Shown one piece after another: positions 16,734-64,000 of a stretch of DNA of 64,000 bases (the first letter of the stretch is position 1; each line of letters opens with the position of its first letter). The stretch is from a virus. Taxonomy: Duplodnaviria > Caudoviricetes. The stretch lies in the IMG/VR virus record IMGVR_UViG_3300010347_002030. One strand, written 5' to 3'. The translations under genes and the position numbers were made by a program. Under the pieces are notes generated by a model, which worked only from the letters and a program-made list of their open reading frames with translations, was not told where the DNA came from and ran no database searches.

Positions 16734-18008
16734 TTAACTCGTGGTTTGATTCTGATTGTTGTTATAAAGTTGTTCTACGTACCAAGGATCGTCAGCGTTG
16801 ATAAGTCGGTTTTGAATTGGATTGATGAATCGAATATCGAGGGTGAAAATATCGAATTCCATGATGCTTCCTTGTTCACCGGAATCTTGAATCATCAAAG
16901 GAAGCTGTTTAATGACTTCCATGTGTTGTTGAGTGAACTGTTTCCCGTCAAATGTAACAACAATATCGTTGTCTGGCGTTGCAGAAATAGGTTTCACCCG
17001 ACGATACATTTCAAATTTTGAAATTTCTTGTTGTCCTTCGATATAATCCTGTAGGATTGCCATCGGTAAGTCGGCGTAGATAGTATCACACCAAGGTTCA
17101 ATGAACTGCAATAATTGAACCGGACAGTTTTTCACGACGAATCCGATGTTATAACGTGGGTGAACGATTGGAAGCATGTTTTGATCGTGTAGAACATCCA
17201 TATGCCACTTTCTCCACCAGTCACGGAACTTGATTTGGCGAAGCTTTGTGTATTCTTCCGAATCGGCGGAACGTTTCCATACTTGTCCATTTCCAATTGG
17301 GATTTCTTGAACTATTTTGATTCCATCTTTGAATCGGCTTCCTCGGCAAGTCATGTGATATACAAAAGCATCCCTTGCTTGGAGGAGTTCGTATCCTTTG
17401 AGAAGAAAGCGATTGAACAAATCTGAATCTTCTAGTTCCATTGGTGCAAATACTCGTTTATCGTGGCCACCAATAGCAAAAAAATCCTCGACATACATAA
17501 TCCATGGAGCAAAAATTCCTTTTGTGGTTATTCCTGCATTGGTTTTTTGCTCTTGTTCAATGAAACGAAGAAACAAATCCTCTTTGAAATCTTCGGGTTC
17601 CATTCCCATGTCGATGACATATTTTTCTGGTCCCGGTGGATGTAATGGTGGTTCTATTCTTGTTCCGGAAATGACTCTACCACGCCGCAAATGTCTCATC
17701 ATTCGTTCTACATAATTTGGTCCTGCAATCATGTCGGCATGAAAAATTCCGAAGACTTCGTTGGCGGCCATTTTGGCTCCAAGGTCATATAAAACAGTGT
17801 GTCCAACCCGTTCTGGTCCTTCATTGCGAGAAACTTTCACATTTTGATCTTGTGTTTTTTGGTTTAACATCCAATCCCATGTGCCGTCTGTCGATGCATC
17901 ATCCAATAGAATGACTTCCACATCTGGGCCAAGATGCTTACGAATACTATTGTAGGCAAACCTTACATACTTAAGATTGTTCCGTGATGGTATAACGAGT
18001 GTTAGCAT
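16734..18008 (-). CDS. Glycosyltransferase family 2
   Basis: LVIPSRN, LDDASTDGT, HAD, GGHD..EDSD. Confidence 0.88.
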   Translation of the reverse strand: MLTLVIPSRNNLKYVRFAYNSIRKHLGPDVEVILLDDASTDGTWDWMLNQKTQDQNVKVSRNEGPERVGHTVLYDLGAKMAANEVFGIFHADMIAGPNYVERMMRHLRRGRVISGTRIEPPLHPPGPEKYVIDMGMEPEDFKEDLFLRFIEQEQKTNAGITTKGIFAPWIMYVEDFFAIGGHDKRVFAPMELEDSDLFNRFLLKGYELLQARDAFVYHMTCRGSRFKDGIKIVQEIPIGNGQVWKRSADSEEYTKLRQIKFRDWWRKWHMDVLHDQNMLPIVHPRYNIGFVVKNCPVQLLQFIEPWCDTIYADLPMAILQDYIEGQQEISKFEMYRRVKPISATPDNDIVVTFDGKQFTQQHMEVIKQLPLMIQDSGEQGSIMEFDIFTLDIRFINPIQNRLINADDPWYVEQLYNNNQNQTTS

Positions 18009-18946
18009 ATGGATGTAAACCTCCATTTGTAATGGTCCACGATAGATGGGAGAGCTTTGTCGAATTCTTGATGATTAGTCCATCCTGTGGATTTCAGTTT
18101 TGAACAATCAACACTATAACGAACATCCTGTCCCGCTCTGGTGAAATTGAAATCACAATAAGGTGTGATATCATCACTATCCGTTAGAAGTTTTACCACT
18201 TTCTGGGCGACGACGAGGTTGGATTCTTCATAGTTCCCACCAATGTTGAATATTTGATTTCTTAAATCGTTTTTGATGATGTGAATAATAGCGTCGGCGG
18301 TATCGGCGACATGAAGCCATGTTCTTCTTGGAGTTCCTTGATTATGAAGTGGGAATTTTCCTTTTTGGATTACAGCTTTGCATATGCATGGAATGAGTTT
18401 CTCCGGATATTGATAGCATCCATAGTTGTTCGTTGGACGAACTATTGTTGCCTCGATTCCGTAAGTTCTCGACCAAGCAGAAATCAACATATCAGCCGCC
18501 GCTTTGGTTGCAGAATATGGATTACTTGGTTTCAGAGCATCTGTTTCCGTATGAGATCCTTCAACGATGTCTCCATAAACCTCATCGGTACTGAACTGGA
18601 GTAGTAAAGGTTTCCATTTTGATTTCGTAATTAAGTTAAGGAGGTTGTGAACTCCATATACATTTGAATCAATGAATTCTTTACTGGAAGCAATGGAATT
18701 ATCTACATGAGTTTCTGCGGCAGTATTGATGATTATGTCACAAGGCCATAGGGTATTCAGATCTTTGATATCTTTTTCCCAAAACTGAAAATTTGGTTCC
18801 CGACTAAAGACTTCTAACATACCAAGATTGGCAGCATAGGTTTTCTTGTCCACGCCATGAACAAACCATCCCTGATCTAGACATTTTTGAACGATGTGGA
18901 CCCCAATAAACCCGAGACACCCCGTCACATAAACTATTTTTTTCAT
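18002..18946 (-). CDS. rmlB: dTDP-glucose 4,6-dehydratase-like SDR
   Basis: GCLGFIG, AAETHVD, STDEVYG, YSATK, NNYG..QYPEKLIP. Confidence 0.88.
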   Translation of the reverse strand: MKKIVYVTGCLGFIGVHIVQKCLDQGWFVHGVDKKTYAANLGMLEVFSREPNFQFWEKDIKDLNTLWPCDIIINTAAETHVDNSIASSKEFIDSNVYGVHNLLNLITKSKWKPLLLQFSTDEVYGDIVEGSHTETDALKPSNPYSATKAAADMLISAWSRTYGIEATIVRPTNNYGCYQYPEKLIPCICKAVIQKGKFPLHNQGTPRRTWLHVADTADAIIHIIKNDLRNQIFNIGGNYEESNLVVAQKVVKLLTDSDDITPYCDFNFTRAGQDVRYSVDCSKLKSTGWTNHQEFDKALPSIVDHYKWRFTSIC

Positions 18947-20277
18947 GTTACTTTTTTGAAGAATTCGTTAACTACTTCTTGAATATAAGTAGTTTGTTCT
19001 TTTGTAATAACTGGACTTGTCCCTAGGAAAAATGTATCTGTTGTAGCTTTTGTGGCATTCGGAAAGAGTTTTTTTATCTTGTTGTAATCGCCATAAGCCG
19101 GAACAAGATCTGAATAGGCTGGTTGAAGCAGTAAGTTTCCACCGAAATAGTTTCTTGTCTGGATTTTTCTATCTTCAAGAAACCGGCAAAACTCAGAACG
19201 TTTAAAGGGGGCTCCATCTTTTACCGTTAATGGAAACGCAAACCATGAAACGTCGGCGTGTTCAATTGCTTTGGGTAGAATAAAGTGTTCTTCGTATTGT
19301 TTGAAAATTGCCAGCAATGCCTCATAGTTTGCCTTTCTTTTAGCAATGATGTCTGGGAGTTTATCCAATTGGGATAGTCCCATAGCGCATTGTAATTCAA
19401 TCGGTTTGAGGTTGTATCCAATTTCCTCATAAACATATTTGTGATCGAAAATTTCCTCTGGGAAAGCTGGAATCCAATTTTTGAAACGACACCCACAAGA
19501 GCCTTTAGTTGACAGATTCGCTGCTTTACCAACACAATAGCATCCTCTTCCCCATTCACGAAGGCTACGAACAACTTTTTCTTGTTCGGCGGTGGAACAA
19601 ACAACAAAACCGCCTTCTCCCATTGTAATATGGTGGGCGGGATAGAAGGAATAGGATGACATTGCACCAAAGGCTCCCAATGGACGACCTCGGTAGGTTG
19701 AACCTAATGCATCACAACAGTCTTCAAGAAAAACAAGTTTATGAGTTGCCACAATATTCATAATGGCATCCATTTCTGGAGGATTTCCCAGAACATGAGC
19801 GAACATGATACCTTTTGCTTGAAAGTAATAAGCAGCCATGTCGGCTTGTTCTGGATTTAAGTTTAAGGTGTCAAGCTCTATATCAACAAACGCAGGAGTA
19901 AACCCATTTTGTAAAATCGGGTTAAGAGTTGTTGGAAAGCCTGCTACCGGAGTTATGATATGACCACGTTTAAGTCCCCATAACCGCTTTGACTTAAGAG
20001 CAGCAACCATTAAGAGATTTGAACTGGATCCACTGTTGGTTACGACACCATACGAGCGGTTAACCAATAAGGGAAATCGTTTTTCAAACTCTACTGCTTT
20101 ATTGCCGAGAACAAGCCATTCATCTAATAATACCGAAATGGCAGAAAGGTATTCTTCATTAGTGTAATATGGGCCAGCATATTGTACCCAATCCTTCCCC
20201 GGTGTCCATTTTTTTGTGGTGTGCTTTTCATTAAAGTACTTGGCAACAAGATCTAAAATAAGGTCTTTGGTGGTCAT
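18943..20277 (-). CDS. rfbH: CDP-4-keto-6-deoxyglucose 3-dehydrase (E1, RfbH/DdhC)
   Basis: NSGSSSNL; SFYPAHHITMGEGG (His in place of the PLP Lys); Fe-S Cys cluster GRGCYC..SCGC; DHKY. Confidence 0.9.
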   Translation of the reverse strand: MTTKDLILDLVAKYFNEKHTTKKWTPGKDWVQYAGPYYTNEEYLSAISVLLDEWLVLGNKAVEFEKRFPLLVNRSYGVVTNSGSSSNLLMVAALKSKRLWGLKRGHIITPVAGFPTTLNPILQNGFTPAFVDIELDTLNLNPEQADMAAYYFQAKGIMFAHVLGNPPEMDAIMNIVATHKLVFLEDCCDALGSTYRGRPLGAFGAMSSYSFYPAHHITMGEGGFVVCSTAEQEKVVRSLREWGRGCYCVGKAANLSTKGSCGCRFKNWIPAFPEEIFDHKYVYEEIGYNLKPIELQCAMGLSQLDKLPDIIAKRKANYEALLAIFKQYEEHFILPKAIEHADVSWFAFPLTVKDGAPFKRSEFCRFLEDRKIQTRNYFGGNLLLQPAYSDLVPAYGDYNKIKKLFPNATKATTDTFFLGTSPVITKEQTTYIQEVVNEFFKKVT

Positions 20278-20963
20278 GATGTAAAGATAGCAATGAAATC
20301 TTTGAGTTTTTGAGCATCTCTGGCTCGATCTCCTTCTAGACTTTTGTAATAAGCTCCGATATCGCCAGCAACCTCGATGCGTTTTTGATATGTTTCATCC
20401 TGTGGAGCTTTTCCGACGGCGGGGTGTATGTGCTCAATAATTAGATTTGGCATATAACATTTTCTTCCTATTCTTTCAGCCAAATCTGTTATCCACTCAT
20501 CGGTATAGGCAGACGCCAGTTTTGGTGGAAGTACATATCCAACCAACTCAACCCAATACCGATGAATGAATCCATGGGTTCCAATTCTGCCCCTTTGAAA
20601 ACCGTCTTCTCCATATACGAACAAAATTCTGTCTTCATATTTGGCAAATTCTTGTTCAACGATAACATCCCATTGTGGCGTCTTAAACACAATATCATCG
20701 GCACCAAAGAAAAAGATGTCGCCTTGAGCAAGCTTGCCGAGTTCGTTATACATTTGGCTACCAATGAGTTTGTTTCCTTGAACAGCATTTACGTTAAGAC
20801 GCTCGGCGGCATATTGTAAAGCTGGAATAGACTCTTCGTCATCGTCGTCTATGTAAACTAATAATTCAACGTTTTGGACATTGCTTACGGTATTGATGAT
20901 ACTGTCCACAAAACGAATGACGTTCTGTGGACGTTTTCTGGTTGGGGCTATAATACTAATCAT
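20274..20963 (-). CDS. Glycosyltransferase family 2-like
   Basis: ISIIAPTRKR, YIDDDD, GADD. Confidence 0.8.
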   Translation of the reverse strand: MISIIAPTRKRPQNVIRFVDSIINTVSNVQNVELLVYIDDDDEESIPALQYAAERLNVNAVQGNKLIGSQMYNELGKLAQGDIFFFGADDIVFKTPQWDVIVEQEFAKYEDRILFVYGEDGFQRGRIGTHGFIHRYWVELVGYVLPPKLASAYTDEWITDLAERIGRKCYMPNLIIEHIHPAVGKAPQDETYQKRIEVAGDIGAYYKSLEGDRARDAQKLKDFIAIFTS

Positions 20964-21892
20964 ACAATAGTTTCAGATTGATATTTTTCGTAATCAAATA
21001 GGTTAGGAGTTAAAAAGAGTTTTTCTTTTATAAATGGACCTAAACCGGGGTCTAGTGCAAACCCGTTTTCGTCGAATTTGGATGGGTCGTGGTCAAAAAT
21101 GTGTGCCCATTCGTCATACCCGAATCCAGTTGAACGGGCTCGTGGGTCATTTAAAATATCTAACATATCTAACCCAAACATAAGATTGTTCCAGTATCCC
21201 TTGGGACCAAGGTGGTCAAAGCCAGATGTGGCTCCATCAGCCGATTTAGTATGATAGATGACCAAATCTTTCACGACAACCCACTGTAGTTTGAGAGCAG
21301 CAAGCATAAAGGAAAATACTGATTCTGTACAGTATGCTTTGAAAATATCCGGAATTAAATGTCCGTAATATTGCAGCACACGGTCATCGTAAAGATTGAA
21401 ATGGAGGTTAATGCACTTACCCACCGGAACAATGAAATCTTGACCAACCCAGACATGATCGGTGGGAAGACCGAACCAATTTTCCTTGCCCATGTCCGTA
21501 TTTGTTTGGAGTGTCACGATACCATATTTACCTGTGACAAATCGCTTGTGCATTTCTTGTAGAGCATGGGTATGATTTTGAACATCCACACCAGAATCAA
21601 CGTAAAGGTACCCATCGTATCTACCCTTTCGTTTAATGATTTCCTGAACAGCTTTGTTGAAAGTAATATTGACTGGTTGAATCTCGTCCATGAAGCAATA
21701 CATGAGACGTTTTCCGAATTTCTTTTGAAGTCCTGTTTTTGTGGCGTTGTGCATAGCACATCCACTTACAACGGTATCGAAAGAAAATCCATTGGTAGTT
21801 TGTTTAAGCAGACTTTCAAGATGTTTGATATAGAGAAACAAATTGTTTTTCTGAATCTCACACGTATTGAATATGACGAGATATTTTTTCAT
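20960..21892 (-). CDS. Putative GT-A glycosyltransferase (paralog of 31553-32527)
   Basis: GT-A-like N-terminus, YVDSG, PDIFKAYCTES shared with the paralog. Confidence 0.6.
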   Translation of the reverse strand: MKKYLVIFNTCEIQKNNLFLYIKHLESLLKQTTNGFSFDTVVSGCAMHNATKTGLQKKFGKRLMYCFMDEIQPVNITFNKAVQEIIKRKGRYDGYLYVDSGVDVQNHTHALQEMHKRFVTGKYGIVTLQTNTDMGKENWFGLPTDHVWVGQDFIVPVGKCINLHFNLYDDRVLQYYGHLIPDIFKAYCTESVFSFMLAALKLQWVVVKDLVIYHTKSADGATSGFDHLGPKGYWNNLMFGLDMLDILNDPRARSTGFGYDEWAHIFDHDPSKFDENGFALDPGLGPFIKEKLFLTPNLFDYEKYQSETIV

Positions 21893-23415
21893 TAATCTCC
21901 GAGAAGTTTTCTCTTCAATTTGATTTTAGCCATTTCTTCAACGTTTCGTCGTTGCTGTAATCCAAACTTACGTTCAACCAAATTTAGATAGGCCGGATTT
22001 GTGAAATAAGTATGCCACGCATTGTCACGAAATGCCAGCACTTCGGCAGATGTGCAATACTTCGTTGGAAGCGGTTCTGACTCATAACTCAAGAAAGCGT
22101 ATCCTTCTGGAGTGGATGGTAATTTCCAACCTTCTCGGATAGCACGAACATATAGAGGACTTCCCGGTAAGGCCATACAAGGATACATATTGGTTGTCTC
22201 GGCGTTGATTTCTAATGCAAGATCCAACGTTGCTTGCATACTTTCTCTGGTATCATCCGGAAAACCAAAAATGAAGTTACTGATAACATTGATATCGGCA
22301 GCTTGGATGTCTTTACACACCTGACGGATATTAACATTCTGGAAGCTTCCTTTACTGACTTCGGTTCTGATTTCTTGCTTGGCGGCTTCGATGCCTAAAG
22401 CAAGCCAATTGATTCCGGCTTTTTTGAATAATTCGAGATATTGTTTACGAACTGTGTCGATACGGGCATAAGCCCACATGTTAAATTTCATCTTTCGGTC
22501 TATGATGTTATTCAATAAGGGTTCAAAGTAACGTTTGTCGAGAAAAAACATTTCATCAGACAGACGTACCGTTTCTACACCATAAGTGGCAAGTTTTTCA
22601 AACTCTTTGGTAATAAAGTTCGGAGACCAGAACCGCATAATGCGACTATCCGCAGAAGAAATTCCATCGGAATTATCTTTACGGTTGAGAATGTTAATCA
22701 TACAGAAATCACAGCCAAATCGGCATCCTAAGCTGGTATAAATAGCCGCAAATGGTGTTCTACGAGGTTTATCGAAGTTGACATGCCAAAAGTGAGCCCG
22801 ATATAAATCAAATGGTTTTTGTTTGTACGGGAGTAAATCCCACGCATATCCCGGTAAGTCTTGGTCCATCTTGTCATTTGGAACCACGAATTCTGGGGGA
22901 TTAAGAACACTAAGGCCATTTGGTTTCCAACCTATTCCCCTGACTTTCTGTAAATCTTCCGATGTTTTCAGATCGGTTAGAAGAAGATTGCGTAAGGCAT
23001 AAACACCTTCGTTAAGGAGTACAAAGTCAACAAACGGTTTGGCTAAGACTTCTTTAGGTAGAGCACTTACATGTGAACCAACCATGCAAATAGGAAGACT
23101 TGGTAAAGCTTCCTTAAGTTTCTCGCCAGTGCGGTAGGCTCCAATCATCATGGTTGTTCCAGAGTTTGGGTTCTGTCCATACATCACGAAAACTACCAAT
23201 CGTGGTTTTAACTCTTCTACACGACGAACTACCTGTTCGTCGGTTAATCGTTCAGCATTGGCGTCTAGAATGCCAACTTTAAATCCAACTGAACGACAAC
23301 TTTGGGCTAGTAGTAAAGACCACGTTGGTGTTTCAATAGCACTAAATTCGTCGGCAAGTGCTTGATAAGCTTCCTTGGCGGTATTTGGTTCGATGAATAA
23401 TACGTCTAAGTTCAT
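21892..23415 (-). CDS. Cobalamin-dependent radical SAM enzyme
   Basis: N-terminal B12-binding domain (GSHVSALP, NEG), CRFGCDFC, LGIE, FIFGFPDDT. Confidence 0.9.
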   Translation of the reverse strand: MNLDVLFIEPNTAKEAYQALADEFSAIETPTWSLLLAQSCRSVGFKVGILDANAERLTDEQVVRRVEELKPRLVVFVMYGQNPNSGTTMMIGAYRTGEKLKEALPSLPICMVGSHVSALPKEVLAKPFVDFVLLNEGVYALRNLLLTDLKTSEDLQKVRGIGWKPNGLSVLNPPEFVVPNDKMDQDLPGYAWDLLPYKQKPFDLYRAHFWHVNFDKPRRTPFAAIYTSLGCRFGCDFCMINILNRKDNSDGISSADSRIMRFWSPNFITKEFEKLATYGVETVRLSDEMFFLDKRYFEPLLNNIIDRKMKFNMWAYARIDTVRKQYLELFKKAGINWLALGIEAAKQEIRTEVSKGSFQNVNIRQVCKDIQAADINVISNFIFGFPDDTRESMQATLDLALEINAETTNMYPCMALPGSPLYVRAIREGWKLPSTPEGYAFLSYESEPLPTKYCTSAEVLAFRDNAWHTYFTNPAYLNLVERKFGLQQRRNVEEMAKIKLKRKLLGD

Positions 23416-23927
23416 GAGTCCCTTTTTGATACAATTGGTTCTTTTACCGGCCAAAATACATTATATTTTGGGTCATTCCATTTAACATGAAGTTGCTGTT
23501 CAATTGGAACGTATGTGTCTGAAAGTTTGTAACTAAAAATACACGTTTCAGATAAACAAAGATGTGCGTTTACACACCCAGATGGAATAAGTATTTGAGT
23601 CCTATTTCTTTCGTTCAAATAAAATGTTTCCACCTTGTCTTTTGTTTCGCCTTCACGTAGATCGATAACAACGAGTTGGATCGAACCTTGGATACATTGA
23701 ACCAGTTTCCATGCTTTGGCGTCTCCGTGAAATCCTCTAAGCACATCCTTTTTTGAAAAAGAAAAGGAATCCACATTGAACGTCAATTTTGGTAAATTCA
23801 GTTTGTTAAGCATCTCCAGCATTTCAATACTGCTGAACGTTTGAACGTTTTCTCCCCGGTGGTCATAAAATACGTTTGGGTGAATGACAACCAATCCGTT
23901 TATTTTTTTGGATTCTTCAAATCGCAT
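23412..23927 (-). CDS. rmlC: dTDP-4-dehydrorhamnose 3,5-epimerase-like
   Basis: DHRG, SKKDVLRGFH, KLVQC, DLR, WNDP..WP, SKRD. Confidence 0.85.
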   Translation of the reverse strand: MRFEESKKINGLVVIHPNVFYDHRGENVQTFSSIEMLEMLNKLNLPKLTFNVDSFSFSKKDVLRGFHGDAKAWKLVQCIQGSIQLVVIDLREGETKDKVETFYLNERNRTQILIPSGCVNAHLCLSETCIFSYKLSDTYVPIEQQLHVKWNDPKYNVFWPVKEPIVSKRDS

Positions 23928-23952
23928 GTTACATCTCTCTACAAATCGTATT

Positions 23953-24915
23953 TTAGACATCCGAGAACGGACAATTGGTGTGTTTTATAATTGGACAAGC
24001 TTCTAACACTTCTCGAATTGAATCGTCCAAGGAATATTTTGGAGTCCAACCGGTCGCTTCCAATTTTTGATTGGAAACAATGTAATTTCTTTGATCTGGG
24101 TCTTTGTTAATTGGAGACTCGGTGATAAAGAAATCCGGAACTTGTTTTTTGATGGCAAGGCACAGGTCCATTTTATTTACATTTGCTGACGTGTTACCAA
24201 GATTGTAAACCTGACCTCGCATTTTTTCTTGGTTGATAATACCTAATAGAATAGCACTAGCCACATCACGCACATGAATGAAGTTTCGTAAAAAATTTGA
24301 CTCGAAAAGGACTATGAAACGGTCATTCCATGCTCTCCATGTGAAATCATTAACGAGCAAATCCATACGCATTTTACGGGACACCCCCATAACCGTTGCC
24401 AAACGGAATGTGATGTTGTTTCCGGAAGCCATAATTGCTTTTTCGGCAGCACATTTAGTCTTTCCGTAAATGGAGATTGGACTCAAAGGGGTTTCTTCGG
24501 TGCAAAATACAGCTTTACCTTCAACGTGCTGACCAAGACCATAACCTGAGTTTGTATTGGCGTGAATAACCAATTGTTCTGGGGTTACTGTCCTTGCCAA
24601 GAATTCAGCACTATCTTGATTAACTTGGCGAGCCTCGATAGGAAAACGATTGCAGATTGGCATTCCAACATAGGCAGCAAGGTTCACAATAACGTCGTGT
24701 TTGGTGATTTGTTCTTTGTAAAGTACTTCGTTTCGAACATCTCCTAAAACAAAACGAAATTTTGGGTTATTACAATATTCCAAGATACCATGTTGTCGAT
24801 GTATGAGGTTATCGAATACAGTAACTTGAAACCCCGCATCCAGAAGAGTTTCAGTTAGAATGTTTCCAATGTATCCAGCTCCACCAGTTATTAATATTTT
24901 TGTCATAGTTATCAT
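23953..24915 (-). CDS. NAD-dependent epimerase/reductase (SDR)
   Basis: GGAGYIG, YGKTK, RLATV, RMDLLVNDF. Confidence 0.88.
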   Translation of the reverse strand: MITMTKILITGGAGYIGNILTETLLDAGFQVTVFDNLIHRQHGILEYCNNPKFRFVLGDVRNEVLYKEQITKHDVIVNLAAYVGMPICNRFPIEARQVNQDSAEFLARTVTPEQLVIHANTNSGYGLGQHVEGKAVFCTEETPLSPISIYGKTKCAAEKAIMASGNNITFRLATVMGVSRKMRMDLLVNDFTWRAWNDRFIVLFESNFLRNFIHVRDVASAILLGIINQEKMRGQVYNLGNTSANVNKMDLCLAIKKQVPDFFITESPINKDPDQRNYIVSNQKLEATGWTPKYSLDDSIREVLEACPIIKHTNCPFSDV

Positions 24916-25877
24916 TGATCCCAGAAACGATACAATTCTTCTATGAAGTAATCTACGCTCTTGTCAAACGGTATGACAGGCTTCCATCCTGTATCTCTGG
25001 TAAATTTTTCCATACTTGGAATTTGAACTGTGATGTCTGACGGTCGTAGAAGGGCAGGATTCTGATAGGTTTTCACGGAGACATTCATTTTATTAATTAG
25101 CATCTCCAAGAAGTCGCCAATTCGGATTCCAACAGTTCCGCCTATATTGTAAACCTCCCCCATCTTACATTTTTGCGTTGCAATCCAATAAGCTTCTGCG
25201 GCTTCACGAACATCAATGAACGTTCTAACGGTTTCCAAGTTTCCATGTTCAAGCACTTTTCGTGTTCCATGCTTGATTTCCAAAATCTGTTTTGCAAACG
25301 CCGTAGCGAACAAGTCTGCTCTACGAGCGTTTAGATAAGTGAACATTCTCGTTCGAACTATGTTCATTCCATAGTTTAGGAAATACACATAACCTAGATT
25401 GTCCTGAGCCATTTTAGAGACAGCATAGGGGTTAATTGGTTTGAGAGGACAATCTTCGGTAATGGGAATGTGTTCTGGTCCAACCGCTCCATACACTTCT
25501 GACGTGCTGCAAATCTGAATGATTGGATTATACCCACTCTTGTTTTTTAAAAGTCTTATTGCTTCTAAGAGGTTCAACGTTATGTTAACGTTGTTTGTAA
25601 CTACTTCATGTGGGTAATCAAACGATTTTCTGACATTGGCCATTGAAGCAATGTGCATTATAATATCCGGACGGTCTTCATCGAAGAGTCTGTAAACAGA
25701 TAAAGAATCGTTCAAATCTAGATATCGTATTTGTAGTTTGTCTTTGATATGAGCGATATTCTTTGATGGAGCGTGGGATCGAGTTGTTCCAATAACCGTG
25801 ACACCCACTTTTTCCAGTAGATATTCGGCCAAGTAACTTCCTCCGCTTCCAGTAATTCCGGTTATTAGAACTTTCAT
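24912..25877 (-). CDS. gmd: GDP-mannose 4,6-dehydratase-like SDR
   Basis: GITGSGGSYLAE, STSEVYG, PYAVSK, GNLETVRTF. Confidence 0.75.
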   Translation of the reverse strand: MKVLITGITGSGGSYLAEYLLEKVGVTVIGTTRSHAPSKNIAHIKDKLQIRYLDLNDSLSVYRLFDEDRPDIIMHIASMANVRKSFDYPHEVVTNNVNITLNLLEAIRLLKNKSGYNPIIQICSTSEVYGAVGPEHIPITEDCPLKPINPYAVSKMAQDNLGYVYFLNYGMNIVRTRMFTYLNARRADLFATAFAKQILEIKHGTRKVLEHGNLETVRTFIDVREAAEAYWIATQKCKMGEVYNIGGTVGIRIGDFLEMLINKMNVSVKTYQNPALLRPSDITVQIPSMEKFTRDTGWKPVIPFDKSVDYFIEELYRFWDQ

Positions 25878-25903
25878 GATACTGATTTCAATAATATTGA
25901 TGA

Positions 25904-25932
25904 ACTATACACTTTTTGTAAAGGAATAGCAA
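25904..25932 (-). promoter_or_regulatory. Sigma70-like promoter inside the sugar cluster
   Basis: TTGCTA-17 nt-TATAGT. Confidence 0.6.
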
Positions 25933-25938
25933 CATATT

Positions 25939-27150
25939 TTATTTTTCTTTTGATAAGATGTCGTGCGCTCTTTGTAGAATTGAAGAACTAGAATCACTTT
26001 TCTCCCCTCCTACGTTGTAGATCATTTTTATACCTAAACGTTGACATGTTTCTTGTTCTTTCGAAGGGGCACTAGTGGGCTTTCTATCTCCTCCGTTACA
26101 AAATATAGATGGACGAACTATTTCTAACGTTTTCGAAACTGTCCCATCTTCATCTATTGCTATAATAGTCTCGTCCACTCCTCGAATGTTTCGGACAATA
26201 TATTCTCGGCTTTTTTCATTTACGACGACAGGAGTGGATTTCATTGCCGCTTGTTTGTCTGAGTTTACGATTACCACAAGATACCCCCCGAGTTTTCTCG
26301 CTTCGGTTATATAGTCTATGTGACCTTTGTGAAGAATTTGAAAGTATCCACTTACTGCTACAACCGGAGTGTATCTTTTTGTAATTTTCCTACAGATATC
26401 CAATAGACGTTCTGTGGAAAGAGTAGATTTGATGAGACTGACATTTTTATCAATCCATTGAATGTTTCCTTTAACATAACCAAGAGCGTTATTTTTTAGG
26501 TCCAACGAAGCATTTCCGATTCCTCGACGGGAAGTAAAAAATAAATCTTTTCCGGTTAATGCACATTTTCCTCCTTGTTCCAAAAAAAGAACATTCAGAT
26601 CGTCAATTGATATGGAAAAGTCAAGGTTTCTGTCTTTTGCTCTTCTTTTTATCTCTGTAAACGTCTTTTTTCCGATATAGCCACACCCCTTGAAGTTTTT
26701 GTGATGATTGAGGGAGTACATGGGAATTCCATAGAATGGTTTAGGCATGTGTCGGTATTGATGTATGCTTATGCACCGATTTAGGAATTCGGATTGGGAA
26801 AGATTGTTTTTCATCCGATTCACGTCTTTATGAATCCATTGGAGGTTTCCTTTTACATAGCCCTGCCTTGAGTCGATTCTATCTAAAAAGGCATTTCCGA
26901 CCTCGAAATCAATGGGTTCTCCTGTAAAAACACACTTTCGGTCTTGTGAGAGATACAGTTCCTCCAATAATGAAATTGAAACGTCAAAGGTAATAAATCG
27001 AGTCTTTGCATTTCGCAGTAAGGAATGATAATAGTCCAACGGAATAAAATTTCCTCCCTCCCATCGGCTGTGCTCATGCCCCCGGCGAGTTCTTAGACAG
27101 CGTTTTAAGCATGTTTTTGTTCGTAAAATATTGGATTCTTGAATCATCAT
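25939..27150 (-). CDS. Fusion of two HNH-like endonuclease repeats to a cytidylyl/adenylyltransferase (RfaE-II/TagD-like)
   Basis: Two C..TG..LD..GYVKGN.QW repeats, then VAVSGYFQILHKGH, NSD, NGGDR, KSDSSS. Confidence 0.8.
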   Translation of the reverse strand: MMIQESNILRTKTCLKRCLRTRRGHEHSRWEGGNFIPLDYYHSLLRNAKTRFITFDVSISLLEELYLSQDRKCVFTGEPIDFEVGNAFLDRIDSRQGYVKGNLQWIHKDVNRMKNNLSQSEFLNRCISIHQYRHMPKPFYGIPMYSLNHHKNFKGCGYIGKKTFTEIKRRAKDRNLDFSISIDDLNVLFLEQGGKCALTGKDLFFTSRRGIGNASLDLKNNALGYVKGNIQWIDKNVSLIKSTLSTERLLDICRKITKRYTPVVAVSGYFQILHKGHIDYITEARKLGGYLVVIVNSDKQAAMKSTPVVVNEKSREYIVRNIRGVDETIIAIDEDGTVSKTLEIVRPSIFCNGGDRKPTSAPSKEQETCQRLGIKMIYNVGGEKSDSSSSILQRAHDILSKEK

Positions 27151-28111
27151 TACCTCCGTTGTAAATTACTGATACGCCCGATTCCTCGAAACTAAATTCC
27201 AAAATGTTATTTGCGAATATGTCGTAGAGCTTTTGTTTTGTAATTGGATTACAGAGAACCAATATAAACCCACAACCGCCCGCACCTAAAAGTTTCCAAC
27301 CACAGGCACCCATACTACGAATTTCATCAATGATTTTGTTGATTTTTCCTGTCGTGATGAACGGGGATATTCGTTGTTTCTCTTCCCAAGTAGCTCTCAA
27401 CAACTTTCCGATGCCTTCGATGTCTTCATTCAAAAAATATCTATGAGCTTCTTTGGCTATTTGAAGGATAGCTGTTTTATCTTTGTGTTCATGCGATTTG
27501 GCAATACTGTTTTGTTCTCTTTGGTCGTTGGTGTAAATCAAAAGCATGGACTTTTGAAGCTCTTCTCGAAATTCCTTGGTTACAGCTAGTGGTTTTACAA
27601 GAAAGTTTCCATTGGGTTGAATTTCAATGGTATTCAATCCTCCATAAGCAGGCCAAATCTGGTCTTGGATACCACCAGCCTCTCGTAAAATAACACGTTC
27701 AATATGAATAGCTTCATAAGCAAGTTCTTTAGGAGAGATTTCTACTTTTCCGAATACTTTGTTTAAAAGGTAAAGCATTCCAACACAAAAAGATGAAGAG
27801 CCACCCAGTCCCGTTCTCGAAGGTACATCCGAAAATGAGTTGAATTCGATGGTTTGGTCAATGTTTCGATATTTTAGTATTTCTCGAATCAGTGGGTTGT
27901 GAATCTCGTCCCAATTCTTAACGATTTGTTGTTGAGAGTAAGTAATAATGCTCTCTTGTGGTAGAATGGGTGGGCGTTTACGCATGGAAAGGTACACATT
28001 CTTATCAATCGTCGTCCCAATAAGGAAAGAGCCATGTTGTTCGTAGAATTCTTTGTAGTCCGTGGAACCTCCAAAGAACGAAATTCTAAATGGTGCCTTG
28101 ACTATAATCAT
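27074..28111 (-). CDS. hddA: GHMP sugar kinase, heptose-7-phosphate kinase-like
   Basis: APFRISFFGGSTD, PSRTGLGGSS, GIQDQ, KLLGAGGCGF. Confidence 0.85.
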   Translation of the reverse strand: MIIVKAPFRISFFGGSTDYKEFYEQHGSFLIGTTIDKNVYLSMRKRPPILPQESIITYSQQQIVKNWDEIHNPLIREILKYRNIDQTIEFNSFSDVPSRTGLGGSSSFCVGMLYLLNKVFGKVEISPKELAYEAIHIERVILREAGGIQDQIWPAYGGLNTIEIQPNGNFLVKPLAVTKEFREELQKSMLLIYTNDQREQNSIAKSHEHKDKTAILQIAKEAHRYFLNEDIEGIGKLLRATWEEKQRISPFITTGKINKIIDEIRSMGACGWKLLGAGGCGFILVLCNPITKQKLYDIFANNILEFSFEESGVSVIYNGGNDDSRIQYFTNKNMLKTLSKNSPGA

Positions 28112-28494
28112 TTCTGTGAGTCTCCTTTCCAGACCCGGTAACTGTCGGAATCTTCATGATGAGTAGAAACCTCAAATATTACTCCATCAGTATTAGCAAT
28201 AAGTTGGTGTGGTTGTCCCGGTCTCTGCCGAACAATATCACCTACATTCAATGTAACTTCGTGAACATCGGCATTCGTCGTGTCAATCCACCGATAGAGA
28301 AAAATTCCATTTTGGACATACCACGTTTCATCTTTATTCATGTGGTAATGCATTGAAAATTTACATCCCTGTTTGAAGATAAGCAATTTGCCGCAATAGA
28401 GATCATTATTTTCAATGATGAGTTCTTCGCCCCATCCCTTCGGAACTTTGCAACCATGGCAAACTTCTGGTTTGATGCATTCGTTATTTTTCAT
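28108..28494 (-). CDS. Cupin sugar isomerase-like protein
   Basis: KGWGEE, SMHYHMNKDETW, PGQPH, EVST. Confidence 0.8.
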   Translation of the reverse strand: MKNNECIKPEVCHGCKVPKGWGEELIIENNDLYCGKLLIFKQGCKFSMHYHMNKDETWYVQNGIFLYRWIDTTNADVHEVTLNVGDIVRQRPGQPHQLIANTDGVIFEVSTHHEDSDSYRVWKGDSQK

Positions 28495-29020
28495 TATAAA
28501 AATCTCCCCATTCTACTAGGATGGTTGATTTACCGTCCGTTCTCGTATAAGCCTTTTCGTAAGCAGGAAAAATCTGATCTGGTTCATCTAATCGAATAAT
28601 TTCGACGTTTGGAGCCATCAAGCGAAAAGCTTCTGTGTAATCTCCGACGTGCTGATGTTGTGGGTGAAGAGGACGTTCTGAACCAATCGATGTTCGGATG
28701 ATGACTTTCGGACGATATGGAATATCTGCCATACCGGGAATCTTATCCAAATGATTTACTATTTGGTTTGTAGCGAGCAAAAGAAAGTTCCATCTGGGAT
28801 AAATTGATATAGGAATTAGTCCCTTGAGCGATAAACCGATACTCATTCCCATTTGCATGTCTTCTGTAACTGGCATTTCCAATAACTTGGCTCTATCCAC
28901 GTCTTTTAATGTGTTTGTCATTGCTGTTCCGGCATATTCCACTGCTTGACCGAGGAACATTGTATTATCTTTTTGTCCTAGCCATGTCATGGCTCTTTTT
29001 AATTCGTCAAAGTATTTCAT
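28484..29020 (-). CDS. TPP-enzyme E1 beta/transketolase pyrimidine-binding subunit (short form)
   Basis: FLGQ, EMPVTED..G, NQIVN, PQHQH. Confidence 0.85.
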   Translation of the reverse strand: MKYFDELKRAMTWLGQKDNTMFLGQAVEYAGTAMTNTLKDVDRAKLLEMPVTEDMQMGMSIGLSLKGLIPISIYPRWNFLLLATNQIVNHLDKIPGMADIPYRPKVIIRTSIGSERPLHPQHQHVGDYTEAFRLMAPNVEIIRLDEPDQIFPAYEKAYTRTDGKSTILVEWGDFYNEK

Positions 29021-29775
29021 AAAATTACTCCATAACTACAATTTGGATTTTCTTGAATAAGATGTTTCATGAGTTTGACATATGTTTCCCCGTCAACGTA
29101 GTCATAAGTTCGAATACAGTTGTTTTCTCCGAACCAATTTTGAAACCAACAACTATGTGGAGAATAAATGTTTGGATTGTGATGTGGAACTTTTTTGTGA
29201 ATGTATGCACCGAGCCAATGGTCAACATAATGGTGTTTTAGAGACGGATTGAAAAAGATTCCATCAAATTTTTCCTCTACGGTTTTTCTAGATACGAGAG
29301 GAAAACTAATAACTGGATAGTTGTAATCAAAAGTTTCGTTGGTTACTCCAGTTGTCCACCTAGAGGACCAACAGGCGTTTGGAAGCCCTTCGTTGTTGTG
29401 GTTTCTTCGCATATTATCAAACCACCCACCACCCAAATTGTAAACTTGATATTCCGCTTCTTTGACTTCTTGGCTTTCAAGAAGAATTAATAAACGATTA
29501 ATGTCAATTTTTAGGATATTATCATCGACGGCCACTGCAATCCATTCTCCGGAGCAATGTTTGTACCCTTTATTAAAAGCATAAGTTGACCCACTTTCCT
29601 TGTCGTCCACTACTAATTTTATATTTGGCGTCTCTAGGTTTTCAACTTGATCTATAATATATTGAGGAGCACAAATAACAAATTCATGCTCATGTGGACC
29701 CAATGCTTCTATAAACCGCAAGCATTCAAAGCCGACGTTCAAATCTCGTTTTGTTGCTATTAAATAGGATATCAT
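29017..29775 (-). CDS. Putative GT2-like glycosyltransferase
   Basis: ISYLIAT, AFNKG, AVDD, HHYVD. Confidence 0.65.
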   Translation of the reverse strand: MISYLIATKRDLNVGFECLRFIEALGPHEHEFVICAPQYIIDQVENLETPNIKLVVDDKESGSTYAFNKGYKHCSGEWIAVAVDDNILKIDINRLLILLESQEVKEAEYQVYNLGGGWFDNMRRNHNNEGLPNACWSSRWTTGVTNETFDYNYPVISFPLVSRKTVEEKFDGIFFNPSLKHHYVDHWLGAYIHKKVPHHNPNIYSPHSCWFQNWFGENNCIRTYDYVDGETYVKLMKHLIQENPNCSYGVIL

Positions 29776-30419
29776 TAGAATTGAATGCGTTCGCCTGTTC
29801 CGGCGTGTGGATATTTGGTTTCGTATTTGTAATAAATGATTTTTTCCAGTTTCATCGTCTTATCCGAAGAAGAATTTAACCAATCTGCATTTGGCTCGTT
29901 TGAGAGTTGAGAAACACCCCATGTTTTTCTGGTGTCAGTACAAACTGATTTGCCGTTATCTTCAATAATCCAAGTGATGGGTAAATCGAAGTTGACAGAA
30001 TATTTCCAGTTTTCGTGAAAAGTTCCTGTTTCCGAAGTCATATCACCGACGAAGCAATAAACATGCTCATCGAGCTTTTGGCGTTTAATGGCTAATGCTA
30101 CGCCATTGGCTATTGGAATGTTTCCGGCTACGATAGCAGAAGAAAAGATTCGGAATTCGGGATAGTTTAGAGCAATAGAACGACCTTTTTTGATATCCGT
30201 TAATAGTTGTTCTGGTGGAACGCCTTTAAGAAGACATTGATAGTGAGACCTCCAAGAGCAGAACACCCAATCCTGTGGCCGAATATCATCAAATATTCGG
30301 ATCATCTGTTCTTCATTGCCATAATACAGATGAACGGGGGCACGAATTTCTTTGTTTTTCCAAGCTTCGCAAACTCGTTCTTCGAAACCGATTAAGTCTT
30401 GAGGCGTAAACTTTTTCAT
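29775..30419 (-). CDS. TPP-dependent dehydrogenase E1 alpha-like subunit
   Basis: PVHL..GNEE, WRSH, GDMTSETG...EDN TPP-binding motif. Confidence 0.88.
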   Translation of the reverse strand: MKKFTPQDLIGFEERVCEAWKNKEIRAPVHLYYGNEEQMIRIFDDIRPQDWVFCSWRSHYQCLLKGVPPEQLLTDIKKGRSIALNYPEFRIFSSAIVAGNIPIANGVALAIKRQKLDEHVYCFVGDMTSETGTFHENWKYSVNFDLPITWIIEDNGKSVCTDTRKTWGVSQLSNEPNADWLNSSSDKTMKLEKIIYYKYETKYPHAGTGERIQF

Positions 30420-30425
30420 GACAAC

Positions 30426-30560
30426 TTATTTTCTATTTTTCCATCCTTTTGATTTTACTAAATATGAGTCGCTTAGTTTCATATTCTCTTGCCTAGTTAC
30501 AAACTCAAGATTGTCTATTCTATTGTTTGAAATATCATTGTCTTTGTGGTTTATTTCCAT
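30426..30560 (-). pseudogene. HNH endonuclease 3' remnant
   Basis: INHKDNDISNNRIDNLEFVTRQEN (HNH core) in a 44-aa fragment. Confidence 0.7.
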
Positions 30561-30600
30561 ATTCTGGAGTCCATCGTGGATAAAGAAGGGCGATTTTCAT
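30535..30600 (-). pseudogene. Truncated 5' gene remnant (MKIALLYPRWT..., resembles a B12 radical SAM or GT N-terminus)
   Basis: ATG overlaps the upstream stop; only 21 codons. Confidence 0.45.
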
Positions 30601-32527: not shown

Positions 32528-33328
32528 TGAATAATCCTTTTCTGTGTAAATAGGTAAGGAAAGTTTTAGTGGGGTCTTTGTAGTACTCTACTATAACAGA
32601 TTGAAAATAATTTCTTGCTGCTTTGCCACGTTCAATAAGTTCTGAAAGTGGCGTATCGAGTATTTTTTGAAAATCCCGCATCAAATCCTCTGGGGGTAAA
32701 GATGGTGGTATCTTAAAGACAAAATCCATCTTATGCACATCGTCCCCAACAAACCTTTCGTTTCCTATTACGACAGGAACTCTTCCAAAAAACATGCCTC
32801 GTAAAATCGAGCCGTGTTGTGCTCCATTCCGACTGGACATAAAGCTAGAAGGTGTTTATAAATCATCTCACAATATTCGTTAATATGTGAACTTCCTATT
32901 TCGCTAAACGAACGAAGTTCGGCAGTGAAACGAAACTCTCCCGGTAATTTCATTTCCCGAGCCGTTTTGAAAAACTCTCTATAATCATCTTGGTTGAAGT
33001 AGTGGTAGTTTTGTGTTTCAGGTTGTAAAATAGCGTATTCATCTTTGTAAGATTCTCCGACAGTACTGTTTAATACTGCTTTTGACCACGCCCAAACATG
33101 GCTACAAAGACCCTCTTGAATAATGATGAAATCAAAGCTGTTATCTTCAAATGTCTTTAGCTTTTTCCAAATAAGATAGATATGATTTGTTGTTACATCG
33201 AAGGTAGTTCTGTATGTAACAATTTCCGATCCCGGATGTTCGGCTTCGATTGTTCTTTTCAGATTGTCAACCCACGCATGATTGACGGGATCTACTCCTC
33301 TTGAATCTGTCGCTATAAAAATTCTCAT
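32517..33328 (-). pseudogene. Chimeric, frameshifted gene: SGNH-like N-terminus plus exostosin-like C-terminus
   Basis: FIATDSRG start; LCPVG..RFYEACF continues as FGRVPVVIG in another frame across the T6 run at 32787-32792. Confidence 0.65.
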
Positions 33329-38710: not shown

Positions 38711-38835
38711 ATCATCATGTAACACTAATTTCCGGTGTTTTTCAACATATTTTACACCGGGAACGTATTTTTATTTCATCCACGTTGTCGTGGGAATCGG
38801 TTTCCAGTTCCCGTTGAGTAAAACAAACCGATAAG

Positions 38836-42818: not shown

Positions 42819-42884
42819 ATATGCTGACCACACTTACGCTCCATATTTAAGCAGACCATATCAGACAAACGAGGAAAACACAAC

Positions 42885-59704: not shown

Positions 59705-59707
59705 TCC

Positions 59708-62716: not shown

Positions 62717-63550
62717 ATGATTACATTTCTTGATTTAGGATTTCATGGAAGGATGACCAACCAGATCTTTCAATATGCTGCGTTGAGGTCAGTTGCGTTG
62801 TACAATGGATATGAGATGAAAATTCCCGACGTAACAGGAAGAGTATGTTGGGGTCAATCAAATAAGCTTCATAATTTTAATATATCGTGTTCTATTCTTA
62901 CGGATGAAGATGTAAAATCCATTCGCCACTACTACGAAGAACCATATGCCAATGAGTTTGTGTACCACGAATCGGTTTTTGAAATACAAGATTTTACCAG
63001 CATCAAAGGCTTCTTTCAACATCCTAAGTATTTTGAGCGTTACGCTTCTGAACTTAGAAAAGAGTGTTCTTTGAAAGCGCATATAATGGAAAAGAGTTCT
63101 GCCAAAATTTCTGAAATAAAATCTCGTTTTCCGAATCGGGAACTTGTTTGTCTTCATGTTCGTCGAGGAGATGCAATACCTTTATGGGATAAAATATTTC
63201 CCTCTGTTGCTTCACTTATGGAATTCATCGCTGCTGCTAAGTCATACTTTCCAAATGCGGTTTTCTTGGTGTTTTCTGGGGGAAACAAAGGGGAATTTAC
63301 CCATCCGGAAGCATACGAATTCTGCCGAAAAACATTTCAAGGAGACGAATATGTTTTCATAGAGCATAATGAGGAAGTTGTTGATATGGGTATGATGGTT
63401 CTTTGTGACCATTACATTGTTCCATTTTTTACGTCGTTTAGTCTTTGGCCAATGTTTCTCAATACCTCTCCTACGAAGAAAAGTATCTTCAAAGATGGGA
63501 ATTATAATAACACTGTCTTTCCCCGATATGACGGATGGATCTATTTATGA
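62717..63550 (+). CDS. GT11 alpha-1,2-fucosyltransferase-like
   Basis: GR.TNQIFQYA, GFFQ..YF, LHVRRGD, FS, TSFSLW. Confidence 0.88.
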   Translation: MITFLDLGFHGRMTNQIFQYAALRSVALYNGYEMKIPDVTGRVCWGQSNKLHNFNISCSILTDEDVKSIRHYYEEPYANEFVYHESVFEIQDFTSIKGFFQHPKYFERYASELRKECSLKAHIMEKSSAKISEIKSRFPNRELVCLHVRRGDAIPLWDKIFPSVASLMEFIAAAKSYFPNAVFLVFSGGNKGEFTHPEAYEFCRKTFQGDEYVFIEHNEEVVDMGMMVLCDHYIVPFFTSFSLWPMFLNTSPTKKSIFKDGNYNNTVFPRYDGWIYL

Positions 63551-64000
63551 ATATGGTTATAACCCCAAAAGAGTTCCAGAAAAGGATGTGGTTCCAATAT
63601 CCTCCTAATAATATTGAACTATTTGAAGAGTATTTCTTAGATCGCTTCATTTCTGTTGATGAATGGACGTATCTTCCCATTCTCTGGACTCCTATGATTT
63701 GTCATCGGGATATAAAAGGAAATTATGATGATGTTCAAGCATTCTTAAATGAACTGGATAGGTCGAAGAGATACTTTACTATTTGTCAACATGACGATAA
63801 TATCCTAAACGATTTATCCCACTTGAACATTACTATTTTGGCGGCGGGAGGGTATGGTCGGTATCGAAAAAGAGTTTATCCATTGCCCTTGATTTGTTCC
63901 TCCAAGTCAGACCCATCACAAGTTTACCCAAAAACAATTTTTGCAAGTTTTGTTGGTGCGATAGATGCAGAGGGGGTTCGTCATCCTATTCGAGTCAAAA
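63547..64000 (+). CDS. Exostosin-like glycosyltransferase, partial (runs off the window)
   Basis: Open frame MNMVITP..YLPILWT..YFTICQHDD..PLPLIC..ASFVG..HPIR. Confidence 0.65.
   Translation, partial: MNMVITPKEFQKRMWFQYPPNNIELFEEYFLDRFISVDEWTYLPILWTPMICHRDIKGNYDDVQAFLNELDRSKRYFTICQHDDNILNDLSHLNITILAAGGYGRYRKRVYPLPLICSSKSDPSQVYPKTIFASFVGAIDAEGVRHPIRVK

Follow-up and report, generated by a model that had tools for sequence, protein, structure and literature searches.

The purpose of the sugar-gene clusters of big phages has been a question since the first cyanomyophage genomes, and the DNA studied here raises it again. The stretch, hereafter the window, comprises 64,000 nt of IMG/VR record IMGVR_UViG_3300010347_002030 (Duplodnaviria; Caudoviricetes) and carries two blocks of glycan genes with 16 or more glycosyltransferases (GTs). 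On what acceptor do these enzymes build their glycan? The first-pass annotation had answered that the phage assembles a methylated and sulfated glycan in the cytoplasm on its own particle. In the present study, we found that virion glycosylation is still the leading hypothesis, with a conserved core of GTs and with DNA disfavoured as the acceptor; the argument from missing exporters, which had been part of that proposal, does not discriminate between the explanations. We consider that the acceptor is probably made by the phage and is most likely a virion protein, and we put the probability of this reading at roughly 45%. Two cultured relatives, phage immuto of Flavobacterium sp. LMO8 and phage Mel-JY01 of Microcystis, make the acceptor question directly testable, and the immuto DNA data already disfavour DNA glycosylation.

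Two blocks of soluble glycan enzymes

The two glycan blocks lie inside a T4-like replication module at the coordinates first assigned to them, block 1 at 16734-40356 and block 2 from 53110. Block 1 is one minus-strand run of 23.6 kb, from 40356 down to 16734, and block 2 is a plus-strand run of ~12.6 kb that extends about 1.7 kb beyond the window end. Together they amount to about 36 kb, or ~23% of a genome of ~158 kb; an identical copy of the core GT4 sits on a contig of 157,793 bp. The same block gene order was recovered independently in several ENA, JGI and Logan samples. The glycan genes are ameliorated: their codon usage and that of the replication genes were alike (Jensen–Shannon divergence of about 0.01), as were GC content and GC content at third codon positions (GC3). 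Because the gene order recurs in independent assemblies and the codon usage matches that of the replication genes, the window is neither cellular nor chimeric, and is part of a real, large phage with T4-like replication.

Pfam, NCBIfam and PHROGs profiles were run on every window open reading frame (ORF) with a length of at least 80 aa. The first count of 18-20 GT-like ORFs was too high: many such ORFs are present, and 16 were supported, half of them firmly. A GT was called firm when it scored at or above a curated profile threshold or had strong PHROG support. The firm GTs were two GT2 (16734 and 35483), two GT4 (38836 and 53110), the product of 36227 (phrog_2170, 4.4e-15) and, in block 2, a GT25 (60295), a GT11 (62717) and a GT47-like enzyme (63535, from precomputed annotation). 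Sub-threshold Pfam matches, paralogy, resemblance to an immuto protein annotated as a GT, or feature and structure matches in the Atlas were the basis of the other eight calls. All of these were on the minus strand, and they included 20274 and 29017 (GT2 Pfam, slightly under the cut-off), 30600 (RXYLT1/GT47-like), 32517-33328 (a frame-split paralogue of 30600), 62056 (GT77-like, E 0.006), 34497 (virus-only 'GT family 1' clusters of the Atlas), and 20960 with its paralogue 31553 (GT-A fold by the Atlas). The GT9-like label could not be verified. The ORF at 55845-56930 was without a match in a full HMMER search, in Pfam (searched with 21 of its homologues) and in a profile search of the PDB; its N-terminal 'S.GD' and C-terminal 'GGDS' motifs may be reminiscent of GT9. 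Six ORFs of block 2 stayed without an assignment after relaxed Pfam and PHROGs scans (five of the six), PDB sequence searches (three of the six) and a homologue search (one of the six), where 57481-57930 was scanned with Pfam only and 59708-60277 with PHROGs and with Pfam on a longer reading.

The remaining enzymes were identified at the family level. Among the nucleoside diphosphate (NDP)-sugar pathway genes, RfbH (CDP-6-deoxy-4-hexulose 3-dehydrase; ORF 18943) scored 444 bits against a curated NCBIfam cut-off of 423. The two methyltransferases were recognized by profile as Methyltransf_24 and FkbM, the sulfotransferase by a Sulfotransfer_1 match of ORF 58950, and the B12 radical-SAM enzyme (21892) as class B, with a second such gene past the window end. 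A Kyte-Doolittle scan with a 19-residue window detected no transmembrane (TM) segment in either block, the GHMP kinase reaching a marginal 1.63. The window ORFs gave no match to Wzx, Wzy, ABC-2, Bac_transf, Glycos_transf_4 or GtrA. These results indicated that the enzyme inventory and its soluble nature were described correctly from the letters, apart from the number of GTs and the GT9 label.

A conserved core and a variable remainder

The minus-strand run that contains block 1 is headed by a PD-(D/E)XK nuclease (41937..42833; Pfam PDDEXK_1, 1.6e-20). This nuclease is a conserved anchor and also lies upstream of the GT4 in immuto, Mel-JY01 (L015) and two NCBI phage assemblies of 277 kb (L016) and 401 kb (L017). 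It is followed by a small minus-strand ORF (41166..41450; 85% identity in L016 and 46% in L017), possibly an RHH/Arc-like regulator, with a weak match to the Arc-like repressor phrog_582 (E 0.0035). The core GT4 of 506 aa (38836..40356) matched Pfam Glycos_transf_1 (8.8e-11). Its AlphaFold2 (AF2) model had a predicted local distance difference test (pLDDT) score of 82 and adopted the GT-B fold, and Foldseek matched it to MshA, PimB', sucrose-phosphate synthase (SPS) and the chlorovirus GT B736L, which was also the best PDB sequence match (E 1.7e-8). The EX7E motif (E315-x7-E323) of the C-terminal domain was invariant in 25 homologues; judged by model and motif, the core GT4 is probably an active retaining enzyme. 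Its best 120 homologue clusters were 62-85% identical and came from contigs of up to 401 kb.

A dUTPase-like gene (37958..38725, minus strand; Pfam dUTPase 2.2e-15, phrog_135 2e-28) lies between the two large core GTs and occupies the same place in L016 and L017. The second large core GT is the GT-B of 466 aa (36227-37627, minus strand; the phrog_2170 match given above), for which no PDB sequence match was found. It is followed on the same strand by a GT2 of 246 aa (35483-36223; Glycos_transf_2, 7.8e-17) and a GT-B-like ORF of 329 aa (34497-35486), whose matches to the virus-only Atlas clusters had a score of 0.99 and a TM of 0.9. All core and accessory proteins tested fell in virus-only Atlas clusters. 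The idea that the 506- and 466-aa GTs form a GtfA/GtfB-like protein O-GT pair came from their sizes only and was unsupported. In addition, one core GT4 homologue (P0016; 75% identity, 880 aa) carries an intein splicing domain according to precomputed Pfam annotation; inteins usually reside in highly conserved replication or packaging proteins, and a GT is an unusual host. In Mel-JY01, the annotation divides the orthologue of the core GT4 (L015:12001-13492) into two ORFs, with the break between the GT-B domains, whereas the gene is intact here.

The order of these genes was shared well beyond the window. In the 277- and 401-kb assemblies, PolB and DUF5662 are followed divergently by the nuclease, small ORFs, GT4, the dUTPase-like gene, a small ORF, a GT-B of ~465 aa and a GT2 of ~240 aa, after which each assembly has different glycan genes. 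Identities in L016 and L017 were 82.5 and 66% for GT4, 77 and 63% for the 466-aa GT-B, 75 and 61% for GT2, and 76 and 60% for the 329-aa GT-B-like protein, compared with 72-82 and 53-61% for the PolB parts. Thus, the core GTs match or exceed PolB in conservation, and this polymerase-level conservation spans thousands of metagenomic homologues. In immuto (Flavobacterium, Bacteroidota) and Mel-JY01 (Microcystis, Cyanobacteria), the order nuclease, GT4, GT-B, GT2 was retained at 32-45% identity, with 44% for the core GT4 in both phages and 32-38% for the 466- and 246-aa genes. The nuclease, GT4 (~505 aa), GT-B (~465 aa) and GT2 (~240 aa) are therefore orthologous and syntenic in all of these cassettes, and the dUTPase-like gene and the 329-aa GT-B are further genes that the huge phages have in common with this phage. 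The complete genomes of immuto and Mel-JY01 yielded no match to Bac_transf, Glycos_transf_4, Wzx (Polysacc_synt), Wzy_C or ABC2_membrane. By its conservation and placement, the core GT4 appears not to be an accessory gene.

Unlike the cassettes of these relatives, which measure ~6-11 kb, block 1 extends over 23.6 kb with NDP-sugar pathways and is accompanied by the second block of ~12.6 kb. It closes with a minus-strand GT2 (16734) that is orthologous to the last gene of the immuto cluster (45% identity). Block 1 is thus the cassette of the clade, grown from about 6-11 kb to 23.6 kb through the insertion of sugar pathways. In independent assemblies, the sequence directly upstream of the window carries a divergent PolA, then gp32, then a RecA/UvsX-like gene. 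This arrangement assigns the phage to the immuto-centred 'divPolA1' group (PMC11348598), which was described by its divergent PolA and neighbouring replication genes. Members of the group encode canonical polymerases belonging to family A, B or C (PMC11348598); immuto retains the GT cassette with a family A polymerase nearby. In line with this placement, GT4-506, GT-B-466 and GT2-246 lie downstream of the nuclease here in the same order as in the immuto-like cassette. We propose that the glycan system may be a hallmark of a clade of large phages that consists of the immuto-like 'divPolA1' group and related huge phages.

Block 2 showed a similar architecture. It follows the clamp loader and a deoxyribosyltransferase-like gene, and this anchor is also fixed in a 98-kb contig (L021). 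A strong terminator (53047-53069) lies directly upstream; the start of the block is placed at 53110 and is unlikely to be the TTG at 53059. On the plus strand, the GT4 (53110) is followed by an ORF of 322 aa without assignment, Methyltransf_24, an unassigned ORF of 361 aa, the FkbM methyltransferase, unassigned ORFs of 149 and 351 aa, the sulfotransferase (58950), an unassigned ORF of 189 aa and the GT25 (60295). Two minus-strand ORFs (61379-62685), one of them weakly GT77-like, precede the plus-strand GT11 (62717) and the GT47-like gene (63535), which is open at the window end. Past this end, a longer assembly (L001) contains the rest of the GT47-like gene, the second B12-binding radical-SAM gene (L001:11682-12983, about 0.7-2 kb past the window end), which closes the block, and then a DUF5661 gene. 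Six genes form a backbone that L021 keeps at 29-45% identity, namely GT4 (45%), three unassigned ORFs (among them ORF367 at 31% and ORF351 at 35%), Methyltransf_24 (35%) and GT25 (29%); the C-terminal part of PolB had 48%. In the corresponding block, L021 has a polysaccharide pyruvyl transferase gene (L021:13504-14256), as opposed to the sulfotransferase found here. By the genes present, sulfation here and pyruvylation in L021 would be alternative routes to negative charge. GT clusters in large phages and the glycosylation of phage virions are both known. The novelty is in the scale, the two-block architecture of a conserved core and a variable remainder, the conservation throughout the clade and the chemistry. 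No study of the function of the cassette in these phages was found in the literature.

The candidate acceptor and its rivals

We favour an acceptor made by the phage because the core GTs are conserved like PolB across relatives that include phages of Bacteroidota and Cyanobacteria, because the DNA of immuto contains no glycosylated base, and because an ORF with a tail-tube fold lies 6 nt from the core GT4. In addition, the proteins tested fall in virus-only clusters, the anchors are fixed and the two complete relatives are devoid of membrane steps; these observations are consistent with an acceptor supplied by the phages themselves. The tube-fold ORF (40363..40797, minus strand; 144 aa) is located immediately upstream of the core GT4 and matched no Pfam or PHROG profile. 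Its AF2 model (pLDDT 73) resembled the T4 baseplate-tube protein 5iv5_BG (Z 11.4, rmsd 2.6 Å over 113 residues) and the T4 neck protein 9mkb_AC (Z 11.3) in VIA-wide comparisons, and its best 50 matches were all proteins of the tube/Hcp fold. The position of this ORF beside the core GT4 is a hint of a virion acceptor, not proof.

In the pathway that we propose, the conserved soluble GTs (GT4-506, GT-B-466, GT2-246 and GT-B-329) would start a glycan on an acceptor common to all these phages, and block 2 would provide a second conserved backbone alongside the core set of block 1. Lineage-specific genes would provide uncommon NDP-sugars and would lengthen and tailor the chain. Sugars of the 3,6-dideoxyhexose type would be made via RfbH, possibly with a branch added by the thiamine diphosphate (TPP) enzyme and with heptose-type, amino or deoxy sugars. 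Tailoring here would comprise O- or C-methylation and sulfation, and the relative with the pyruvyl transferase in its block-2 counterpart may differ in this respect. The acceptor would most likely be at least one structural protein of the phage, modified where it is made, in the cytoplasm, and the virion would leave with a variable anionic glycan coat. A wider claim is put forward tentatively: large and huge tailed phages of a widespread clade may possess essential, clade-defining and wholly autonomous virion glycosylation, on a par with that of giant viruses, in which a conserved four-GT primer would start the glycan on a structural protein and rapidly exchanging gene sets would build strain-specific, methylated and anionic (sulfated or pyruvylated) heteroglycans with rare sugars of dideoxy, branched or heptose type. 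Such coats would give the particles variable glycan surfaces, with effects on adsorption, environmental stickiness, grazing, immune recognition and phage typing, and these phages would have an 'O-antigen' of their own.

Virion glycosylation has precedents of different kinds. The mycobacteriophages of the Freeman et al. 2023 report (Che8, Corndog and Myrna) are said to glycosylate their virions. These systems share with the present one soluble phage GTs, in some cases with methyltransferases, that act in the cytoplasm without export, and the glycans are on capsid and tail-tube subunits (as cited in PMC12619734). They differ in that their cassettes have 2-4 genes of unrelated enzymes next to structural genes, whereas the 16 or more GTs here are in the replication module, with the orphan tube-fold ORF as the only adjacent candidate for a tail gene. 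In virions of the jumbo phage XacN1, glycoproteins were detected (PMC5852040). Giant viruses provide a further parallel, in that soluble GTs, rare-sugar pathways and methyltransferases encoded by the virus place glycans on virion proteins (chlorovirus Vp54, Mimivirus fibrils); in the window, soluble GTs, NDP-sugar pathways and tailoring enzymes are likewise all virus-encoded. Giant viruses are, however, eukaryotic viruses with another virion architecture, and the homology is confined to generic GT4 and GT47-like folds.

Several points weigh against a virion acceptor. The blocks lie away from the virion genes, within the module for replication and nucleotide metabolism, and in known phage virion-glycosylation cassettes the GTs lie beside capsid and tail genes. 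GT25, GT11, RfbH and the heptose-type pathway are classic families of lipopolysaccharide (LPS) and lipooligosaccharide (LOS) synthesis. The GTs of lipid-linked pathways are normally soluble or peripheral, so the absence of export genes proves little. To our knowledge, a phage-protein glycan that requires 16 or more GTs is without precedent. The tube-fold ORF is confined to close relatives, with only 9 homologues and the same placement in L016, and the tail tube of a myovirus is buried beneath the sheath. The fold search with the core GT4 returned generic GT4 matches only and no clue to the acceptor, GtfA (4pqg) reaching only E 0.92 by sequence.

The strongest rival places the acceptor on the host. 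Soluble phage GTs, working at the cytoplasmic side of the membrane, would remodel a host envelope glycan through host undecaprenyl-linked or lipid A-core intermediates, and host machinery would export the product; the surface of the infected cell would be altered, which might prevent superinfection or keep progeny from adsorbing again. The first-pass annotation had held host LPS intermediates and DNA to be less likely than the virion. Its judgement on DNA is supported by nucleoside analysis of the relative immuto, but the host envelope is a sizeable rival, which we nevertheless consider unlikely on the whole. Genes of LPS/LOS type are numerous here (GT25, GT11, RfbH, an HddA-like kinase, an HldE-domain-II-like nucleotidyltransferase, an RmlC-like gene and short-chain dehydrogenase/reductase (SDR) genes). 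Core-type glycans built on lipid A need no initiating phosphoglycosyl transferase (PGT), Wzx or Wzy from the phage, as the carrier, the exporter (MsbA, Wzx or ABC) and the ligase could be those of the host. The gene content, which varies among relatives, also fits a host-specific surface chemistry. Against this, the core GTs keep PolB-level conservation among phages that infect hosts of separate phyla, in which the envelope glycans differ, and the proteins tested fall in virus-only clusters and are not host-like. Neither the window nor the two complete relatives contain a gene for a membrane step, and the intein in a homologue together with the fixed anchor in the replication module suggests a core function, not one of the moron type.

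The comparison with known loci bears on the same question. Bacterial O-antigen and capsule loci resemble the blocks in their NDP-sugar genes, serial GTs, tailoring enzymes and hypervariable content, but an initiating PGT, a flippase, a polymerase, an ABC-2 permease and a chain-length regulator have no counterpart here. By family matches, the window carries neither a Wzx/Wzy nor an ABC-transporter locus, for it lacks the initiating PGT, Wzx, Wzy and ABC-2 permease. Closer in kind are the LPS or 'cell wall synthesis and modification' clusters of large T4-like phages such as P-SSM2, S-SCSM1 and S-SCSM2R, in which numerous paralogous GTs also occur together with sugar kinases, HIGH-type nucleotidyltransferases, epimerases and methyltransferases. 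Like the present blocks, the clusters of cyano-, pelagi- and jumbo myophages are polymorphic in content and have no exporters (Iyer et al. 2021; PMC12801897, PMC7824862, PMC7029224), and comparable clusters have been read as O-antigen modification against superinfection (PMC7824862, PMC7029224, PMC12801897). Those clusters are described as sporadic and are located in hypervariable or tail-fibre regions, whereas the blocks described here have fixed anchors and backbones conserved like replication genes. The 16 or more GTs also exceed the 13 of S-SCSM2R, a number that may be a record among marine phages according to the published account. Should the target be the host envelope after all, the blocks would represent the largest known phage programme for rewriting a cell surface.

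A second rival, which we regard as distinctly unlikely, is that the blocks make some other cytoplasmic product, a soluble or lipid-anchored glycoconjugate that would be used by the infected cell or be released at lysis as a decoy or matrix; examples would be polysaccharides with many methyl groups, glycolipids and small molecules bearing sugars. The structures nearest to the core GT4 (MshA, BshA, PimB', sucrose-phosphate synthase and a mannosyltransferase of methylmannose polysaccharide) act on small-molecule or lipid substrates, and no sequence feature links any of the GTs to a protein acceptor. With 13-17% identity, however, these matches stem from the GT4 fold in general. The blocks are not accompanied by genes for a carrier, lipid synthesis or secretion, and the hypervariable decoration suggests an exposed surface under selection.

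The last rival is DNA hypermodification, in which the GTs (e.g., the core GT-Bs by the nuclease and dUTPase-like genes) would glycosylate a hydroxylated base in the manner of the T-even phages and of the more recently described 5hmC/5hoC glycan systems. The blocks do lie within the replication and nucleotide module, beside the PD-(D/E)XK nuclease and the dUTPase-like gene. Known DNA glycosylation systems (T4 alpha/beta-GT, 5mYOX- and ThyS-linked clusters, and arabinosyl-5hoC) likewise have GT-A and GT-B enzymes, in some cases with a sugar-nucleotide pathway, near replication genes. Phage DNA may bear mono- to trisaccharides, including heptose added via a kinase, a cytidylyltransferase and a GT-B (bioRxiv 10.1101/2023.12.21.572611), and polyarabinose on 5hoC is also known (PMC13326640). 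In immuto_2-6A, however, analysis by liquid chromatography with ultraviolet and mass-spectrometric detection (LC-UV-MS) revealed dA, dC, dT and fdPreQ1 and no glycosylated nucleoside (PMC10516641), dG being fully replaced by 7-formylaminomethyl-7-deazaguanine (PMC10516641). The homologous cassette was found in the record of immuto_3-5A, which is near-identical to the phage analysed. The window ORFs gave no Pfam match to a thymidylate-synthase homologue, TET/5mYOX or a C5-methyltransferase, so that no hydroxypyrimidine-forming enzyme was recognized in the window. The structural matches of the core GT4 were GT4 enzymes, with the T4 beta-GT not among the matches listed. With 16 or more GTs and sulfation far above the one to three sugars of known DNA glycans, glycosylation of the phage DNA is very improbable.

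Variable genes and genome context

The variable part of block 1 (16734..34539, minus strand) encodes two DegT-family enzymes (18943, which is RfbH, and 33325), three SDR dehydratase/epimerases with an RmlC-like epimerase gene, the B12 radical-SAM gene (21892), an HddA-like GHMP kinase, a cupin, and the HldE-domain-II-like nucleotidyltransferase fused to two HNH domains. A TPP enzyme is present in split form (29775 and 28484). Interspersed are the GT2-like or GT-A-like genes 20274, 20960, 29017 and 31553 and the GT47-like genes, of which 30600 is intact and 32517-33328 is split. The DegT gene at 33325 has 74% identity in L016, past which the gene content differs in the 10-kb flank of that assembly.

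The HldE-domain-II-like nucleotidyltransferase (25939-27150, minus strand) begins with two repeats, residues 15-129 and 153-259. Both repeats resemble, at 36-41% identity, the free-standing HNH gene (46924-47484) lying between the two parts of PolB. A 180-nt gap in block 1 (30419-30600, minus strand) contains a 21-codon ORF resembling a truncated GT N-terminus, followed by a degenerate HNH-endonuclease-like remnant (...NIDNLEFVTRQEN...); these remnants suggest past homing-endonuclease damage within the operon. At 32517-33328 (minus strand), two overlapping ORFs of 186 and 107 aa make up, respectively, the N-terminal and the C-terminal portion of a gene paralogous to the GT47/RXYLT1-like 30600-31556, and by its reading frames this locus appears to be a frameshifted or pseudogenised GT47-like copy.

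Outside the blocks, the replication module encodes a 5'-3' exonuclease, a DnaB-like helicase, a class II ribonucleotide reductase (RNR) with an intein, a CobS-like AAA protein, clamp-loader subunits, a dNMP kinase, the PD-(D/E)XK nuclease, a phosphoribosyltransferase and nucleoside-deoxyribosyltransferase-like proteins. With the class II RNR and the two B12 radical-SAM genes, the phage has a total of three cobalamin-dependent enzymes. The family B DNA polymerase is in two parts, with an intein in the first part and the HNH gene between them; its C-terminal part (47465-48901) showed 36% identity to Mel-JY01 and about 30% to KVP40-like T4-type vibriophages. A nucleotide search of the window against isolated-phage genomes gave no match, and an IMG/VR scan with PolB yielded two distant loci and nothing closer. 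In the 16 kb upstream of the window, three large ORFs matched no Pfam or PHROG profile.

Block 1 ends next to an IS200/IS605 element (14922..16543, minus strand) consisting of TnpA (Pfam Y1_Tnp, 4.7e-36) and TnpB (OrfB_IS605 and Cas12f1-like_TNB). The element has an identical placement in an independent assembly and is outside the glycan system. The best matches of its TnpB, at 37-50% in cyanobacterial genomes, were uninformative on the host. Beyond the element lies a small minus-strand ORF (14574-14918), for which about three TM helices are predicted and DUF1360 gave a weak match; it matches no recognised flippase and was left uncalled by the gene caller used for another assembly (L009).

Promoter and terminator scans of the window revealed no excess over shuffled sequences. 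The motif TATTTATA was mildly enriched (8 found versus 3.3 expected) and did not mark the block starts. At 1664, 42885 and 59697 on the plus strand and at 12686 on the minus strand, TATTTATA ends 0 or 3 nt before the ATG of ORFs 1672, 42896, 59708 and 12682, respectively. This spacing is too short for a normal promoter, and one of the four, ORF 59708, is an unassigned ORF of block 2.

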